A stretch of DNA of 64,000 nt from Desulfurococcales archaeon (GTDB taxonomy: Archaea > Thermoproteota > Thermoprotei_A > Sulfolobales > NBVN01). Below the pieces are notes generated by a model. The model had not been told where the DNA came from. It worked only from the letters and a program-made list of their open reading frames with translations, and searched no databases. Position 1 is the stretch's first letter, and each line of letters starts with the position of its first letter. The position numbers and the translations under genes were made by a program. Shown here piece by piece: positions 2,181-62,780 of the stretch. The stretch spans positions 6,888 to 70,887 of the forward strand of contig JALVVU010000007.1 of NCBI GenBank assembly GCA_027023255.1, written 5' to 3'.

Positions 2181-3656
2181 CTATAACTTTATTATGCGCT
2201 CAGCGTTTGTGAGTGTGTAGATTAATGGAGCTATGAACATCAGTAACCATAAACCAGTCGCGTAATTACCTAAGATAATGTTGAGGATCATCATTCCCAC
2301 TACATACGCTAGGAAGATCTTCTCTTCTAGGCACCTACTGACCAGCGCGCTCTCTGACTCACCTTTCGGCGTGACTCTGTAGCTATACCGATTCCGCAGT
2401 AAACCAATTACCGTGTACGCCAGCACTATTGGTGACAGGCTTATCGTGAATGATGATGATGAACCCATCGTACGTATAGTTAAGGATCTTGACAACCCGA
2501 CCTCCCTTAGGGAGGAGTAGAAGGAGTAACCATAAAGTCCAATAAGTACTAGTAGGAAGGCGGCAGGCACTACCCCTAGAAGCATTATGTCCTGCCTCAA
2601 AAGTAAGGCAAGTGCCGGGATGACTATGCCTGACAGGGCTAGCAGTGCATGCGGTACGTACTGCATTAGGAAGAGTGTGGCCTCCACTTTCTTAAGGAAG
2701 GGGTATGGGGAACTAAATATTCTTCTCCACCCGTTCTTCAGCGTCTCCATGGCACCGTAAGACCATCTAGCCTGCTGTAATTTCAGGGCCTCGTACCTGG
2801 AGGGTACCAGCACCTTAAGTGACACGTTATCTATGAATCCTACTCTGTACCCCTTCCACATGAGCTTAGTGCCTATGTGCATATCGTCCTGAACTATACC
2901 TTCATCCCATAACCCAACATTCAGTAAGGCGCCCCTATCAAAGGCTGTCCCAGATCCTAGAGGGAAAATGAAGAATCCCTTTGAAGCTCGCCCCCTGTAA
3001 AGCGTATCAACTAGGTACTTCATCGAGAAGCCCACCGCCCGCGCTAGCTTCGTTGATGTTATCCAGTAACCATCCCAGCGCCCCACGCAAGCTGCATTAC
3101 CCTCACGAACACACTTAACTAAGTTAGTTAGGTAACCAGGTTGCGGCCTCGTATCAACATCTAGGATAACGACTATGTCTCTAGCAAAGTTCCGGACAAC
3201 CCAGTTAAGAGCGGCGGCCCTGCCTTTCTGGCCCTCGGTTCTTATCATGAAACGCACCTTTAAGTTTAAATCTTGAGCTAATTTCTCAACACTTTTCTTT
3301 ATGGGTGCCGCCTTCTCGGGAGGATCATCGCAAACGAATACTACCTCATAATCACCGCGTAGCTCGCTTCTTAATCTCGTCATATGATTAATCATGCCAA
3401 GCATTAGGCTCTCAGGCTCATCCTTCACGGGAACTACTATCGTGACCCCGCTTAAGTTACCTCCACTATCAGCAACATTAAGCATCTGAGGATCCCTACT
3501 CCCTCTCCTTCCCTGGAAGTACAGGATGGCGTGAACGAGTCCCATTATAACCGGTGGCAGGAGGAGCGCAATGAACACTACTACCTGAGCAACACTACTA
3601 AAGAAGAGTTGCGCCCCCAGCACGCTCCTCACCCGGCAGGGACCCTCACTGTGCAT
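2181..3656 (-). CDS. Family 2 glycosyltransferase, membrane-integrated, processive (cellulose/chitin/hyaluronan-synthase-like)
   Basis: Motifs VTIVVPVKDEPE, ILDVDTRP, GSGTAFDRGAL and LQQARWSYG (Q-x-x-R-W). Hydrophobic segments lie at the N-terminus and in the C-terminal third. Confidence 0.8.
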   Translation of the reverse strand: MHSEGPCRVRSVLGAQLFFSSVAQVVVFIALLLPPVIMGLVHAILYFQGRRGSRDPQMLNVADSGGNLSGVTIVVPVKDEPESLMLGMINHMTRLRSELRGDYEVVFVCDDPPEKAAPIKKSVEKLAQDLNLKVRFMIRTEGQKGRAAALNWVVRNFARDIVVILDVDTRPQPGYLTNLVKCVREGNAACVGRWDGYWITSTKLARAVGFSMKYLVDTLYRGRASKGFFIFPLGSGTAFDRGALLNVGLWDEGIVQDDMHIGTKLMWKGYRVGFIDNVSLKVLVPSRYEALKLQQARWSYGAMETLKNGWRRIFSSPYPFLKKVEATLFLMQYVPHALLALSGIVIPALALLLRQDIMLLGVVPAAFLLVLIGLYGYSFYSSLREVGLSRSLTIRTMGSSSSFTISLSPIVLAYTVIGLLRNRYSYRVTPKGESESALVSRCLEEKIFLAYVVGMMILNIILGNYATGLWLLMFIAPLIYTLTNAERIIKL

Positions 3657-3813
3657 GCAGTAACCATGAATGTCAAGCCCTCACCACTCCACTACCTGTC
3701 ATTTGTCTTCTCGTTTAAATTTAAAAGGTAATTATCGCGAATGAGAGAAATCAGGGAATAATGGGTAAGCCTATTTTAGGAACCTCGTAGACGTTTGATT
3801 AGGTGCTAACTTC

Positions 3814-15651: not shown

Positions 15652-15754
15652 TGGTGGGGCCGCGGGGATTTGAACCCCGGACCACGGGGGTTCCTGCCGT
15701 CTTCCGTGTGAGCGGACCCAAGCCCCGCATTCTCCCAAGCTAAACTACGGCCCC
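15652..15754 (-). tRNA. tRNA-Pro (anticodon UGG) with ~26-nt intron after position 37; CCA encoded
   Basis: Manual fold of the reverse complement: GGGGCCG-TA-GTTT..GAAT-G-CGGGG-CT-TGG-G-[intron TCCGCTCACACGGAAGACGGCAGGAA]-C-CCCCG-TGGTC-CGGGG-TTCAAAT-CCCCG-CGGCCCC-A-CCA. Confidence 0.85.
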
Positions 15755-17415: not shown

Positions 17416-18765
17416 ATGAGAATGGGTTGGAGGGAGCAGATGAGGAGATATAGTGACTTCCGAAAGGTTAGTGAGGCTCTCTCGGATCTGCTAGTGATAT
17501 CTAAGATTATGTTCTCAGCTAATCTACTCGATATCATCGAGTCACAAGGACCGGTACTCTCTTATGACTCACCACCAAGCACCGTGGTTTTCGTGAGGTT
17601 CGACTATGGTGAGGGAATAGGTTACGTATTACTTTGCTGTAAAGACATGTTAATAGCTACGGCGGCACGTGAGAAGGGTAGGAAGGTCTTTGGCGATGAT
17701 GCTCTGAAACTGATAAGGAATAAGAAGGGTACTTCCTATATTTATAGCATACTGCTTGAGAATCTCCCCGACACACTGAGGTCAAGTGTTGAGAGGGCCG
17801 TTGGTGAATGCAGAGAGTTACATTACCCTGATTCTCTTCTTGGAACTCAACTTTATGGATTGAAGATAGGTAATAACGTATTGGTAAAGACAGAATTTAT
17901 AGTAGTGCTTCCGGCTGAGCTAGATAATCGAAAACAGATACTTGTCCTTCCATCAGATATCTTAGTAGTAAGCAAGGATGGGAAGGCCATACTTTCATCG
18001 CTAGCACTGGACTTTAGTGTCGCGCTAGCTAATGGAGTTGAGGTTTCCGGCCTCTTCATACCTAGGACGGAGTACGGTAGCGTAAACGATCTAGTGGCGG
18101 CACCCCCGTCTCTTGTAATCCCCTGGGCTAGTGCCACTTCCATGGACAACCTCATGAAGCAGGGGAATAAAGATTTTGCTAGAAGCATCCTTAAGAGAGT
18201 GACTCAGTACTTGATACGTGCACACGAGATCGGCGTAGCGCATCTCTGGTTAGATCCGAGGAAGATACTGGTAACGTCGGTTCCGGGTGTAGGGAGTTCC
18301 GTGCAGATATTCATTACTGGGTTCCTAGGAAGGTTCCCTAAGGGACTGATACGATTCGCTAATCCCTTTTATTGCGATCCATACCTCCTCCTAGGCCTTG
18401 AAGGGATACATACTGACGTCTACTCGTTAGGAATGATAGTGTTGGAGACAATGACCGGATCAACTTTAGAGTCGCGCGCAGAGATAGTGCTGGCGTTAAG
18501 GGACGCATTAGTTGGCACACAGCCCAGTGGGGCCAAAGGGAAGTCTGACCTATACTCCCTCATATTCTCTACCGCCCGTAAGGATCCCAGCAAACTTAAA
18601 GACGCGTTTGTCAAGATCATGAAGAATGACACGGTGGTTAGGCGGGATAGAGCTACCCTAGCAAAGGTAAGAGATAAGAAGTTAAGGGATGTGCTTGTAA
18701 GATGCCTCTCATTAGATATTAGTGAGAGGCCAAAGGAGGCTAAGGAATTGTTGAATGTGCTTTAA
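17416..18765 (+). CDS. Eukaryotic-like protein-kinase-fold protein, predicted catalytically dead (pseudokinase), with an unrecognised N-terminal region
   Basis: C-lobe signatures: HEIGVAHLWLDPRKILV (aligns to HRDLKPxNIL), ITGFLG (aligns to DFG), DVYSLGMIVLETMTG (subdomain IX), ERPKEAKELL (subdomain XI). The catalytic D, N and DFG-D positions are substituted. Confidence 0.6.
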   Translation: MRMGWREQMRRYSDFRKVSEALSDLLVISKIMFSANLLDIIESQGPVLSYDSPPSTVVFVRFDYGEGIGYVLLCCKDMLIATAAREKGRKVFGDDALKLIRNKKGTSYIYSILLENLPDTLRSSVERAVGECRELHYPDSLLGTQLYGLKIGNNVLVKTEFIVVLPAELDNRKQILVLPSDILVVSKDGKAILSSLALDFSVALANGVEVSGLFIPRTEYGSVNDLVAAPPSLVIPWASATSMDNLMKQGNKDFARSILKRVTQYLIRAHEIGVAHLWLDPRKILVTSVPGVGSSVQIFITGFLGRFPKGLIRFANPFYCDPYLLLGLEGIHTDVYSLGMIVLETMTGSTLESRAEIVLALRDALVGTQPSGAKGKSDLYSLIFSTARKDPSKLKDAFVKIMKNDTVVRRDRATLAKVRDKKLRDVLVRCLSLDISERPKEAKELLNVL

Positions 18766-18779
18766 TGCTGAATTGTTGA

Positions 18780-18889
18780 TGGTGCGGGGGGTGGGATTCG
18801 AACCCACGCAGGCCTCCGCCAGCGGGTCTCCCCACCTAGCCGGAAAGGTCTTGAGCCCGCCCCCTTTGGCCGAGCTCGGGCACCCCCGC
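18780..18889 (-). tRNA. tRNA-Leu (anticodon CAA), class II long variable arm, ~22-nt intron at 37/38; CCA encoded
   Basis: Reverse complement: GCGGGGG-TG-CCC..GGG-G-GCGGG-CT-CAA-G-[ACCTTTCCGGCTAGGTGGGGAG]-A-CCCGC-TGGCGGAGGCCTGC-GTGGG-TTCGAAT-CCCAC-CCCCCGC-A-CCA. Confidence 0.85.
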
Positions 18890-18976
18890 ACCAAAGAATG
18901 TCGTGTAATGGGATTAATTTGCTTTAACTCTAAACTAGACTGTACATCCACAACTATCACTTAAAGCACCTAAGAG

Positions 18977-31372: not shown

Positions 31373-31437
31373 TCCAGTCATTTGGATTAGTGAACCCTTA
31401 TTTTCTTTTCTACCCTTTGCTCTTTAGGTGAGTTAGG

Positions 31438-32814
31438 CTGACACACGTTAAACTGATCGCGTCTCTAGGGCCCGCTTCTAAAGATTTAGAAACAGTTATC
31501 AAGTTAGTTAACGCCGGCGCGTCGGGGTTCAGGATAAACTTCGCTCACGGAGATAGTAATTTCTGGAAAACCCTCGCTGACAACGTTAGGAAGGCTGAGG
31601 AAATAACAGGCAAGCCTTTGACGCTAATAACGGATCTCGAAGGATCCTCCATAAGGTTAGGTGAGTTACCTGAGCCCCTAACCTTGAGGAAGGGTGATAT
31701 CGCCAGGTTAGTTCCGCAGCAGAGAGCCGAAGAGCCGGGCACGATACCATTCCCAAACGAGAGAGTACTTTCTGAGCTTGAGGAGGGAGACATCCTAGTC
31801 ATGGATGATGGTAGGGTTAGGTTAAGGGTTGTTAAGGTTTCAGGTGATGAAGTTGAAGTCGCAGCCCTAACTGACGCTGTCATTAAGTCTCGCAAGGGAG
31901 TTGTTGTTCAGAACAAGGAGTTCGACCTCCCGGTCCTAACCAAGAAGGATTTAGAGGATATCAAGTTCGCCTGTAGTGTTGGGGCTGACTACATAGGGCT
32001 CAGCTACGTTAGGAACGCAGATAACGTGCGGGTATTGAAGGAACTGCTTAGGGAGATGAGGTGCGATGCCGGAGTAGTGGCTAAGATAGAGACAAGGTCA
32101 GCGGTCAAGAATGTTGAGGACATAGCGCATGTAGCTGACGTGATACTGGTTGCTAGGGGGGACTTAGGAATGAACTTTGGACTAGAGGAGATACCGAGGA
32201 TTCAAAGACGAATTGTTGAGGCCTCGCTGAGAATAGGTAAGCCCGTCATAGTAGCGACGCAGCTCCTGGAATCCATGGTTGAGAACCCCGTCCCGACGCG
32301 GGCTGAGGTTGTTGATACTTACGTTGCCGTGTCTGAGGGCGTTGACGCGTTAATGCTAACCGGGGAAACAGCCGCTGGCAAATACCCCGTTGAAGCAGTG
32401 AAGTGGTTACGCCGGATAGTTAGTAAGGCTGAGGCCAGTGAAAATGTGAGGACGTACAGGGAGGGTGGCCCACTGAAGAGAAGGTACGCTAAGGGTGTTG
32501 CCGAACTTGCAGAGGACTTGAACGCCAAGATAATAATATACTCATCAACGGGGGTCACCGCCCGCCACCTAGCATCAATAAGACCCAACGTGCCTTTCTA
32601 CGTGGCTGTGCCTAACATAAAGGTCGCTAGGTCAATAAACATACTGTGGGGAGTGAATCCTATAATAACTCCCACAAAGAACCATGAAGAAGGGCTTGAG
32701 GAGGCTTTCAAGAAACTCATCAGGATGGATGAGGTCTCAATAGGCGATCTAATAGTAATGACCTACGGCATGAAAGGTGAGGAGCAGGTAATCAAGGTTA
32801 GGCGCTACGTGTAA
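31438..32814 (+). CDS. pyk: Pyruvate kinase (start proposed at CTG 31438; track ORF begins at TTG 31618)
   Basis: Track ORF motifs: VAKIETRSAV, ILVARGDLGMNFGLEEIP, ATQLLESM, MLTGETAAGKYP. The frame is open from 31432 and encodes THVKLIASLGPASKDLETVIKLVNAGASGFRINFAHGD upstream of the first canonical start. Confidence 0.85.
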   Translation: MTHVKLIASLGPASKDLETVIKLVNAGASGFRINFAHGDSNFWKTLADNVRKAEEITGKPLTLITDLEGSSIRLGELPEPLTLRKGDIARLVPQQRAEEPGTIPFPNERVLSELEEGDILVMDDGRVRLRVVKVSGDEVEVAALTDAVIKSRKGVVVQNKEFDLPVLTKKDLEDIKFACSVGADYIGLSYVRNADNVRVLKELLREMRCDAGVVAKIETRSAVKNVEDIAHVADVILVARGDLGMNFGLEEIPRIQRRIVEASLRIGKPVIVATQLLESMVENPVPTRAEVVDTYVAVSEGVDALMLTGETAAGKYPVEAVKWLRRIVSKAEASENVRTYREGGPLKRRYAKGVAELAEDLNAKIIIYSSTGVTARHLASIRPNVPFYVAVPNIKVARSINILWGVNPIITPTKNHEEGLEEAFKKLIRMDEVSIGDLIVMTYGMKGEEQVIKVRRYV

Positions 32815-32892
32815 CGTTACCGAAACCTGAAAATGATTTTATACTGAACCACATTATGTGAAGCGGCTGAAGGGGAGGCGAGGTGAGTCAAA

Positions 32893-33708
32893 CTGACCAA
32901 GAAAAGAAAAAGAAGAGATAAGGGGGCAGGTAAGGTAATCGTTAAGAAGAAAGCAAGGATTTCACCCTCTATAAGAACTAGGAAAGTTAGGTGGGACCTA
33001 ATTATAGCTGCTGCAATAGTAGTATTCATAGCTGTAGGCGTGATCTACCTCGTAACTCACGCATCGAGGGAAACACCCCATCAACTAAAGCCAGCCACGG
33101 AGAATCTTTACAAGGCGCTTGAGGAAATATACTTCACAAACAAACCCAATCCTAACGCGACCCTAGACGTATTCTACGGCGTCAGAGGTAATGTTAACCT
33201 GAACGGCACGGTCTTCGGCGTCAAGGACATCATGCAGTTCAGAATATTCTTCTACAACAGGACACTCAAAGTACCAACAAATGAGAGCGGAACTTCCGGC
33301 AACAAAACCAAAATAGTCGTGTTGAGTGGGCACGGCGTCATACCCCTCGGTGCCTACTACATCCAACCAGTGTTAGACGTATTGGGCTTCACAAGTAAAG
33401 TTGAGAATATCTCAATGCTCCTAGTTAACGTTGAAAACCTCAAAAACCATAACGTAAGTGTAGAGACAAAATACCTCGGGCACGACAAGGTCACAATACC
33501 CACGGTTAAGGAGCCTTTAGATACCGTGAAGGTACAATATACATACACTATTAAAGTACACAACAAGACTTACCACGTTAACGCTACCGTATGGTACGAG
33601 ACTAAGTATAAGTTCCCTGTAAAGGCAGTCATAAATATTAATGGGTATACCTTGACGTTTAAGCTTGAGTACGCTGAGTTAACGTACTTAAGTCAGCGAA
33701 GAATCTGA
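32893..33708 (+). CDS. Type II membrane-anchored, N-glycosylation-rich extracellular protein (start proposed at CTG 32893; track ORF begins at GTG 33040)
   Basis: Nine N-x-S/T sequons in the track ORF. The in-frame upstream region (open from 32887) encodes a K/R-rich segment plus the only TM helix (WDLIIAAAIVVFIAVGVIYLV). There is no ATG/GTG/TTG before 33040. Confidence 0.5.
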   Translation: MTKKRKRRDKGAGKVIVKKKARISPSIRTRKVRWDLIIAAAIVVFIAVGVIYLVTHASRETPHQLKPATENLYKALEEIYFTNKPNPNATLDVFYGVRGNVNLNGTVFGVKDIMQFRIFFYNRTLKVPTNESGTSGNKTKIVVLSGHGVIPLGAYYIQPVLDVLGFTSKVENISMLLVNVENLKNHNVSVETKYLGHDKVTIPTVKEPLDTVKVQYTYTIKVHNKTYHVNATVWYETKYKFPVKAVININGYTLTFKLEYAELTYLSQRRI

Positions 33709-61819: not shown

Positions 61820-62636
61820 GCCTTGCTTCCTCCCCCGTTATCGCTGCTTTGTAGGCTTCAGCCTCTTTCAGCCTTTCCCTGACAAGGGCTGCTAGCTTTG
61901 CTGGATCGACGGCGTGGACCCCATCATCGATTATTGCGTAAGGTACCCATAACGGATTAGTTGGTAATCCCCTCATTTTCTTGGCCATGAGTTGCTTCAG
62001 CGGTATGCCTAACTCTATTAGGTTTGGCTCTATGCGCGTCGCTATAACGCCGTCGACAAGATATTCTAGATGTGCCGCGAGCTCCTCTAGCACTGTGGTG
62101 TTAGTGTGTAGAATCATCACTATCGTGGCTCCCTTACCCTTAGATATTATTGCCCGCATCGACTTAATGAACTCTAATACCTGCATCATCTCAAAACGGA
62201 ACATTAACTCGTTTATCGAGTCAATAACAACGAGGCTAACAACGTCGTCACTAGCTGGCGGAACCTCCTCATGCAGGGCATAAAGCATGCTGTTCAGGTC
62301 GTCGAGACGCTGCTCCCTCGTAACGCCCTTCACTGCCCTCTTTAACTTACCTAACCTGAAGCTGAAGCAGTCAATTATCTTGAACTTGCCCTCATCAATG
62401 AACTTATCTAGCCCCCACCCAAAGTTCGTGAAGAGCTCTATTAGTGCGTCGGGAGAATCATCGAGGTTAACGTAGGTTACATAACCACCTCCCTTCAGCA
62501 CGTTCCACGCTATGTGCGCAGCCAAAACCGACTTACCTGTTCCCGGCGCCCCCGTGATAGCTACCGTGGCGCTTCTAGGGAAGCCTGCAGGTAACGCGTA
62601 ATCTAGGGGCTCAATACCTGTTTTGAATGCCTTAAT
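61791..62636 (-). CDS. KaiC/RecA-superfamily single-domain ATPase (start proposed at ATT 62636; track ORF begins at TTG 62525)
   Basis: The Walker A ITGAPGTGKS and the preceding KAFKTGIEPLDYALPAGFPRSATVA lie upstream of the first canonical start in an open frame. Walker B is VVIDSINEL. Confidence 0.75.
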   Translation of the reverse strand: MKAFKTGIEPLDYALPAGFPRSATVAITGAPGTGKSVLAAHIAWNVLKGGGYVTYVNLDDSPDALIELFTNFGWGLDKFIDEGKFKIIDCFSFRLGKLKRAVKGVTREQRLDDLNSMLYALHEEVPPASDDVVSLVVIDSINELMFRFEMMQVLEFIKSMRAIISKGKGATIVMILHTNTTVLEELAAHLEYLVDGVIATRIEPNLIELGIPLKQLMAKKMRGLPTNPLWVPYAIIDDGVHAVDPAKLAALVRERLKEAEAYKAAITGEEARHESGSQGKQ

Positions 62637-62780
62637 GACCCATCACCCTCCTAGAAAGGACTTCTCACGTAAACTAACTTAACTACCTAGAATAAAACAC
62701 TAACTTCCAAGACGCGTCTATTGCATAGCTCAATGAATTATTAATTAAGCTCCCTAGGTTAGGTTAGTGGTGCTGTCATC

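Follow-up and report, generated by a model that had tools for sequence, protein, structure and literature searches.

Here we describe a gene for a KaiC-like ATPase that appears to begin at none of the canonical initiation codons ATG, GTG or TTG. The gene lies on the minus strand of a 64,000-nucleotide stretch of DNA (the window) from an uncultured hot-spring archaeon of the Desulfurococcales (contig JALVVU010000007.1 of assembly GCA_027023255.1, positions 6,888 to 70,887). Comparison with relatives indicates that the gene is intact and, with a probability that we would put at roughly 80%, that its translation is initiated at an AUU codon (62636-62634) under the direction of a strong Shine-Dalgarno (SD) sequence, yielding a protein of 281 amino acids. 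Near-cognate-initiated genes as such are already known; what the KaiC-like gene adds, on the evidence of the alignments described below, is a case with unusually good comparative support.

The proposed start lies within a compact arrangement of signals. On the minus strand, GGAGG (62651-62647) runs directly into GGTGA (62647-62643), the core of the SD region GGAGGGTGAT (62651-62642), which was assigned from its conservation and from the SD geometry of the window, and ATT follows 6 nt past GGTGA. The TGA within GGTGA (62645-62643) is in frame with the KaiC-like open reading frame (ORF), such that part of the SD sequence itself closes the frame; in relatives, a TGA is likewise found shortly before ATT. 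From 62642 onwards the frame is open and reads TGG GTC ATT AAG GCA TTC AAA ACA GGT ATT GAG CCC CTA GAT, that is (W)VIKAFKTGIEPLDYALPAGFPRSATVAITGAPGTGKSV. The earliest in-frame ATG, GTG or TTG is the TTG at 62525-62523, used by gene callers but encoding an internal leucine, which lies downstream of the Walker A motif or P-loop (GAPGTGKS, 62552-62529). An ATG is present at 62643-62641, but it is 1 nt out of register and opens only the mini-ORF ATG GGT CAT TAA (62643-62632), the TAA of which overlaps ATT by 1 nt. Upstream of the TGA, the in-frame stretch back to a TAA at 62681 contains, on direct reading of the sequence, no canonical start at all, so that a start further upstream combined with reading through the TGA is ruled out. 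On re-reading the sequence, the initial annotation of the locus proved correct in every detail as regards the minus-strand coordinates, the first canonical TTG at 62525 and the opening of the frame at 62642. The revised coding sequence, supported by an intact ORF and a Pfam match, runs from 62636 to 61791 and comprises 281 codons plus a stop.

That a KaiC/RadA-type N-terminus, P-loop included, lies ahead of the first canonical start had been noted from the sequence and is borne out by profile comparison. Residues 7-244 of the extended ORF match positions 2-226 of the 231 positions of the Pfam KaiC model (PF06745) with an E-value of 6.9e-32 and a score of 111.1 bits, against a gathering cut-off of 26.6. 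As the match begins at residue 7, the domain starts approximately four residues past ATT. In an alignment of 17 orthologs (A2), G30, G33, G35, K36, D140 and S141 are invariant; these residues belong to a GxxxxGK[ST] Walker A motif and an hhhhD Walker B motif, the latter represented in the window by VVIDS (62231-62217). By its Pfam score and Walker motifs, the protein is thus a member of the KaiC/RecA superfamily, with a single such domain.

Strong support for the ATT start comes from close relatives. We collected 18 further records of the gene from uncultured Desulfurococcales, giving 13 distinct gene sequences when that of the window is counted. Six come from metagenome-assembled genomes (MAGs) at NCBI (L002, L003, L005, L009, L010 and L012) and four from contigs of GTDB representative genomes (L016, L017, L018 and L024), the remainder being ENA, JGI and Logan contigs; the assemblies are independent of one another. 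Every record in this clade reads GGAGGGTG[A/G]TG[G/A][G/A]T[C/A] ATT AAG, in other words GGAGGGTG-7 nt-ATT. In the ORF frame, the region immediately before the start reads TGA TGG GTC ATT in the window, L001 and L017, TGG TGA GTC ATT in L007, L015, L016 and L024, TGG TGA ATC ATT in L002 and L018, and TGA TGA GTA ATT in L013, leaving just one or two open codons ahead of ATT. Between the in-frame stop and the conserved domain, ATT is the one near-cognate start codon common to all clade sequences. The codon preceding it (GTC, ATC or GTA) was considered as a start and rejected: it varies, only ATC is near-cognate and the spacing to the SD would be 3 nt.

The pattern of variation upstream of the gene points in the same direction. 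Among ten distinct clade sequences, two 40-nt intergenic blocks are variable at 28/40 and 32/40 columns (60/80 together) and the 7-nt spacer at 4/7, whilst the SD block GGAGGGTG and the ATT are variable at 0/8 and 0/3, respectively. Downstream, across all 13 sequences, the 38 codons from ATT up to the TTG at 62525 carry 5, 1 and 23 variable sites at first, second and third codon positions (third-position excess P = 5e-7), and the rest of the gene carries 25, 16 and 131. The ORF contains neither stops nor indels in these sequences, and full-length clade copies have 281 codons with the exception of L017, which ends at 273. On this pattern of substitution, the 38 N-terminal codons are translated and under purifying selection.

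The internal TTG behaves quite differently. It is not conserved in the clade: members of the L002 group have CTG in its place, and those of the L007 group TTA. The nearest database protein (P0001, 94% identical, from JGI metagenome 3300028398) has likewise been called from the internal TTG, but its DNA (L001) carries an identical CTAGGAGGGTGATGGGTCATTAAGGC and shows five differences across the 38 upstream codons, every one of them synonymous. Across the 22 members of the 90% identity cluster, gene calls of 244, 236, 271 and 267 amino acids each begin at another internal leucine or valine codon, one for which the strain in question happens to use TTG or GTG. No clade member has a canonical start before the conserved domain, except where an internal leucine codon chances to be TTG. 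Could translation nonetheless begin internally, as annotated, at TTG 62525 or at another leucine or valine codon, and the protein lack a P-loop? An internal start is the choice of every automatic gene call in the cluster. The calls disagree with one another, however, the codon is not kept in relatives, there is no SD in the 20 nt upstream of TTG 62525, and the codons that would be discarded are under purifying selection and encode the family-invariant Walker A motif. We regard an internal start as highly improbable.

More distant orthologs point to a single start column. Proteins that are 47-75% identical to that of the window begin at the ATT position or at most one codon away from it: P0015 (at M) and P0030 (at TTG) begin exactly at the ATT column and P0014 one codon earlier. 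The ATT is thus homologous to, or one codon removed from, the ATG, GTG and TTG starts of the orthologs, with which the initial annotation had suggested it be compared. We compared the DNA of the start region in approximately 19 ortholog lineages, where the codon 5-7 nt past GGTG is ATG (L031, L035), GTG (L021/22, L029/30/32/44), TTG (L025, L028/38, L042), CTG (L037), ATT (the window clade, L020, L023, L027), ATC (L051) or ATA (L019, L052, L054, L055, L033/34). L026 (GTG) and L040/L041 (ATG) have a canonical start at the column with no GGTG within range, and L036 is ambiguous, with ACG 5 nt after GGTG and GTG three codons further downstream. Where the start column would encode valine or leucine, the codon is always GTG, TTG or CTG and never one of the other seven (joint P ~4e-5, given the codon usage of the window). 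The spacers between SD and start differ among lineages by non-multiples of three, so the spacer must be non-coding. Canonical alternatives are wanting in several lineages: L033 has an in-frame TGA just upstream and no canonical start before the domain, and L034 lacks an upstream canonical start altogether, so that in these two as in the window clade ATH (ATT, ATC or ATA) must serve as the start. Taking these comparisons together, the ATT column is the initiation codon of the ortholog family, occupied by ATH in roughly half of the lineages.

Public gene calls in the family frequently fall elsewhere. In L019, L020, L023, L029, L037 and L051-L055, they begin at the GTG within GGTG itself, or else at a TTG or GTG that follows it by 0-1 nt. 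Such calls are incompatible with SD geometry and imply a variable number of "residues" before the start column; they would most simply be artefacts, and N-termini are probably mis-annotated across the ortholog family.

Two further genes in the window present the same arrangement. The initial annotation had suggested that a search for other ORFs with conserved N-termini ahead of their first canonical start be made across the genome; as carried out, the search covered the 64-kb window and returned three such ORFs, two of them CTG genes. Among 60 non-overlapping ORFs in the window, the number of in-frame codons ahead of the first canonical start is 0-21 in 57 and reaches 39, 51 and 62 in only three, and all three of these begin with AGGTGA, 6 nt and a near-cognate codon. 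GGTGA/G-N6 is also the most frequent SD geometry at canonical starts in the window, being found ahead of the ATG, GTG or TTG starts at 1933, 6439, 8194, 9242, 21719, 24632, 37771 and 59595. Viewed from the other side, 12 GGTGA-N6 sites in the window combine an in-frame TGA, which closes the frame, with an ORF of 80 codons or more beyond it: seven lead to canonical starts and three to CTG, CTG and ATT, the remaining two having other explanations. At one site (3656-3690, minus strand), GGTGA-N6-GAC opens the frame of a 491 amino acid gene, with the first canonical ATG (3656) six codons further on and approximately 24 nt from the SD.

The first of the CTG genes encodes pyruvate kinase (plus strand, 31438-32814). 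Its apparent CTG start at 31438 lies six nt after AGGTGA, the TGA of which closes the frame (site 31426-31440). Starting instead at the first canonical codon, TTG 31618, would remove 60 conserved codons, including those for RINFAHG; relatives of the protein carry the Pfam PK domain. The CTG is invariant in relatives, with a spacer of 5 nt in L048, 6 nt in the window and 7 nt in L049/50, and L049/50 have an in-frame TAG one codon before it. One public call for the gene begins at a GTG inside the SD. The second gene encodes a membrane protein (plus strand, 32893-33708) and is preceded by AGGTGA-GTCAAA-CTG (site 32881-32895, CTG at 32893); its product would be (M)TKKRKRRDKGAGK... followed by a hydrophobic stretch, within which the first canonical start, GTG 33040, is located. 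The CTG is kept in L048 and L049. As neither locus fits any frameshift model, near-cognate initiation behind GGTGA offers an explanation common to all three genes. The proposal, made from the window sequence alone, that the ATT is used 6 nt past GGTGA with the geometry seen at the CTG candidates and at canonical starts is therefore backed by both clade-wide and family-wide comparison.

How might the ribosome select AUU? In the mechanism that we propose, the strong SD (GGAGGGUGAU, core GGUGA) would base-pair with the 16S rRNA 3' end and thereby set the P site of the 30S subunit 6 nt downstream of GGUGA, where initiator Met-tRNA would read AUU with a third-position mismatch. The product would be M-KAFKTGIEPLD... 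(281 amino acids, P-loop included). The crenarchaeal anti-SD is complementary to GGUGAUC. The aEF1A leader of Pyrococcus abyssi, GGAGGUGAUUUAAAUG, offers an SD of similar type, at N5 (PMC6237735).

The promoter region suggests that the leader would be very short. An A/T-rich, TATA-like block, TTAAGTTAGTTTA (62682-62670), forms the most conserved part of the upstream intergenic region in the clade, where it is identical in most members and divergent in L013/L014, and is the presumed promoter of the gene. In most ortholog lineages, a TATA-like octamer (such as TTTTAATA, ATTTTAAA or ATTTATAT) ends 20-24 nt ahead of GGTG. This block and the family-wide TATA-GGTG distance suggest that transcripts begin at or just before the SD, with the SD at the 5' terminus and a leader of perhaps 10-14 nt (some 11-14 nt for the KaiC-like gene of the window), the transcript start being placed by the TATA-to-transcript-start distance rule. 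A TATA-like octamer is also found 20-24 nt before GGTG at the pyruvate kinase gene.

Several observations weigh against initiation at the AUU. In vitro, the aIF1 protein of Sulfolobus solfataricus selects against AUU (PMC4705826, PMC6237735), and initiation at the ATT may accordingly be inefficient. Speculatively, expression of the gene would for the same reason probably be low or sensitive to the levels of fidelity factors, and a weak AUU start might keep expression low or tie it to initiation fidelity through aIF1. Moreover, ATT, ATC and ATA are synonymous codons for isoleucine, and their interchange is by itself no proof of start function. In L020, L023, L051, L052, L054 and L055, GGTG either contains or immediately precedes an in-frame GTG or TTG; were those mRNAs near-leaderless, such codons could start them, and the ATT of the clade would then be a secondary take-over. 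A leaderless start at the GTG of GGTG was also considered for the family as a whole and rejected, since spacers of 5, 6 and 7 nt put this GTG out of frame in many lineages. Lastly, an out-of-frame ATG or GTG lies exactly 1 nt off register in all clade sequences, being ATG in the window and GTG in L002, L007, L015, L016, L018 and L024, and this codon is the basis of three rival explanations.

One of these is that ATGGG stands for ATGG in the window, through a sequencing or assembly error or in a recent pseudogene, as the initial annotation had allowed. Removal of one G would yield ATG GTC ATT AAG (MVIK), which resembles the M-x-I-K/R N-termini of orthologs. L001 and L017, however, come from other samples and carry an identical GGTGATGGGTCATT, other clade members read GTGAGTC, GTGAATC or ATGAGTA, all still out of frame, and purifying selection extends over the whole 281-codon ORF in the 13 distinct sequences. 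The chance of error or decay is thus close to nil, barring a systematic artefact common to every platform and assembler. The initial annotation had offered a +1 frameshift after the ATG as another outcome, and this we consider very unlikely. Translation would start at ATG 62643 (GTG in relatives) and shift by +1 within three codons, before the TAA. There is some likeness to the prfB gene, in which an SD-like element lies upstream, a stop codon follows in the 0 frame and the product is encoded in the +1 frame. Unlike prfB, though, the locus has no slippery P-site codon: CAT, which is not conserved (it is AAT in L013), would re-pair poorly on ATT, and the remaining codon of the mini-ORF varies too (GGT, AGT, AAT). 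Nor is the SD placed 3 nt before a shift site; it is placed for initiation. The 0-frame ORF comprises only three codons, and its ATG or GTG starts at the last base of GGTGA or GGTGG, at 0 nt spacing, which is not a usable context for initiation. The register itself is the geometric outcome of GGTG(A/G) followed by TG and of a 6-7 nt spacer. L033/L034 and the CTG genes, including pyruvate kinase with its spacers of 5, 6 and 7 nt, share the SD-to-start geometry without any such site. The passages on archaeal recoding available from one review, which concern a -1 shift in the fucosidase gene of S. solfataricus, mention no +1 frameshift (PMC8211752). The GGG run is too short for transcriptional slippage.

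Termination-reinitiation makes a different use of the mini-ORF: three to four codons, (GTG) ATG GGT CAT TAA, would be translated up to the TAA that overlaps ATT, and ribosomes would restart at AUU. The arrangement (A/G)TG-NNN-NAT-TAA with its ATTAA overlap is found in every clade member, a similar GTG...TAG overlap is found in L027, and coupled reinitiation at overlaps of -1 and -4 nt is known from both archaea and bacteria (PMC10666635). The overlap is forced, however, as ATT followed by a lysine or arginine codon (AAG or AGA) always yields TAA or TAG; it is absent from the ATA-start orthologs L033/L034, the two CTG genes lack a consistent mini-ORF and, as above, the ATG or GTG abuts the SD at 0 nt spacing, a poor context for initiation. 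We consider reinitiation unlikely. We judge instead that ATG 62643 would be a by-product of the SD and of ATT-AAG: it owes its existence solely to the TG that comes after GGTGA, directly adjoins the SD and leads to a dead end after three codons. SD-directed initiation at AUU remains our preferred account.

Near-cognate initiation of this kind has several precedents. Bacterial genes initiated at AUU or AUA include infC (encoding IF3) and pcnB of Escherichia coli, and infC begins with ATA in Deinococcus-Thermus (PMC2830850, PMC4705826). The KaiC-like gene resembles these in that its near-cognate AUH start is conserved and preceded by a ribosome-binding site, with annotation misplacing the start and alignment revealing the N-terminus. 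Three features that characterise the infC type are found: there is no canonical start before the domain, the SD stands at the spacing seen at canonical starts and both the codon and the downstream coding sequence are conserved. There are differences, however. The gene is crenarchaeal, so that fidelity is exercised via aIF1/aIF2 rather than IF3; it encodes a KaiC-like ATPase rather than a translation factor, with no autoregulatory logic evident; and its start drifts among ATT, ATC, ATA, CTG, GTG, TTG and ATG across ortholog lineages. Another parallel is Deinococcus deserti, where proteogenomics has revealed ATC as the start of dnaA and CTG as the start of rpsL and Deide_03051 (PMC2830850). In D. 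deserti, several genes per genome use ATC, CTG or ATA, as ATT, CTG and CTG are proposed to be used in the window, and in both cases heterogeneous, mis-annotated N-termini become uniform once a non-canonical start is accepted. The D. deserti starts are backed by peptide evidence, whereas those in the window are backed by comparative evidence, each with a perfect GGTGA SD at N5-7 and a TGA closing the frame.

Within the Crenarchaeota, ORFs C34, A49 and D60 of Sulfolobus spindle-shaped virus 10 have been annotated with CUG, AUU and AUA starts (PMC6080066), so that near-cognate starts have been invoked at the annotation level in a crenarchaeal system. Those are viral ORFs without assigned function, presented in the annotation passages of that paper without conservation or selection analysis, whereas the KaiC-like gene is cellular and has clade and family support. 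In the literature searched, no cellular gene of a hyperthermophilic crenarchaeon was reported to start naturally at AUU, AUA or CUG, although such reports may exist.

The KaiC-like protein belongs to none of the named families with which it was compared. It shares with the archaeal single-domain KaiC/RadA-like ATPases (PF06745; thermo_KaiC_1, KaiC_arch_3/4 and ArlH) the RecA-superfamily signature with Walker A and B motifs, a length of ~230-280 amino acids and a single domain. Every named NCBIfam equivalog, however, scores it far below the curated cut-off. With a single domain and 281 residues, it is not a circadian KaiC (double-domain, ~500 amino acids; 54 bits against 408 for TIGR02655 and 38 against 546 for NF006799). 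Nor does it fall within ArlH/FlaH (52 bits against 215 for NF052589, 61 against 194 for NF004723), no archaellum genes being present among the neighbours examined, or within the hypothetical equivalog thermo_KaiC_1 (TIGR03877, 88 bits against 307). Unlike the named families, the protein forms a Desulfurococcales family of its own, with a 2x[4Fe-4S] ferredoxin as its probable operon partner. The 80 amino acid ferredoxin is encoded immediately downstream (minus strand, 61819-61577) by a gene that overlaps the ATPase gene by 29 nt. The overlapping pair is conserved across the ortholog family, and the two genes are probably in the same operon. A gene for tRNA-Ser(GCT) lies 13 nt downstream of the ferredoxin gene (minus strand, 61564-61477). 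Upstream, the divergent neighbours are a PCC-domain gene and then an amine oxidase gene.

The KaiC-like case matters mainly for annotation and as an entry to start-codon stringency in the Crenarchaeota. It is conceivable, at odds somewhat short of even, that near-cognate starts (AUU, AUA, AUC, CUG) on short leaders beginning with the SD are routine in the uncultured lineage of Desulfurococcales studied here and more broadly within its order, affecting around 5% of genes (3/60 in the window) and approximately half of the KaiC-like ortholog lineages. Were this so, start stringency (aIF1, initiator tRNA) would be relaxed, or overridden by a strong and precisely spaced SD, in these hyperthermophiles, and gene callers would systematically truncate or mis-start a measurable share of their proteins. 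Every public call in the 22-member cluster already either lacks the ATP-binding loop or begins at an arbitrary internal codon, and several ortholog calls begin inside the ribosome-binding site, with the result that the family is clustered, and its function and structure are predicted, from wrong N-termini. A simple re-annotation rule for these MAGs would be to look for a near-cognate codon 5-7 nt past a GGTGA whose TGA closes the frame. With ATT, CTG and CTG following GGTGA-N6 at three genes in 64 kb, and kept in relatives, the window also provides a testable case for crenarchaeal AUH and CUG starts in vivo, despite the rejection of AUU by aIF1 in vitro.

A scan of the window with Rfam at gathering thresholds returned only four tRNAs, with no match at the KaiC-like locus. 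Two of the four, of 100 nt (15655-15754) and 107 nt (18783-18889), both on the minus strand, had been missed by ARAGORN and are probably intron-containing archaeal tRNAs. An 82 amino acid ORF at 18712-18960 is probably spurious, as the second of these tRNAs lies inside it.

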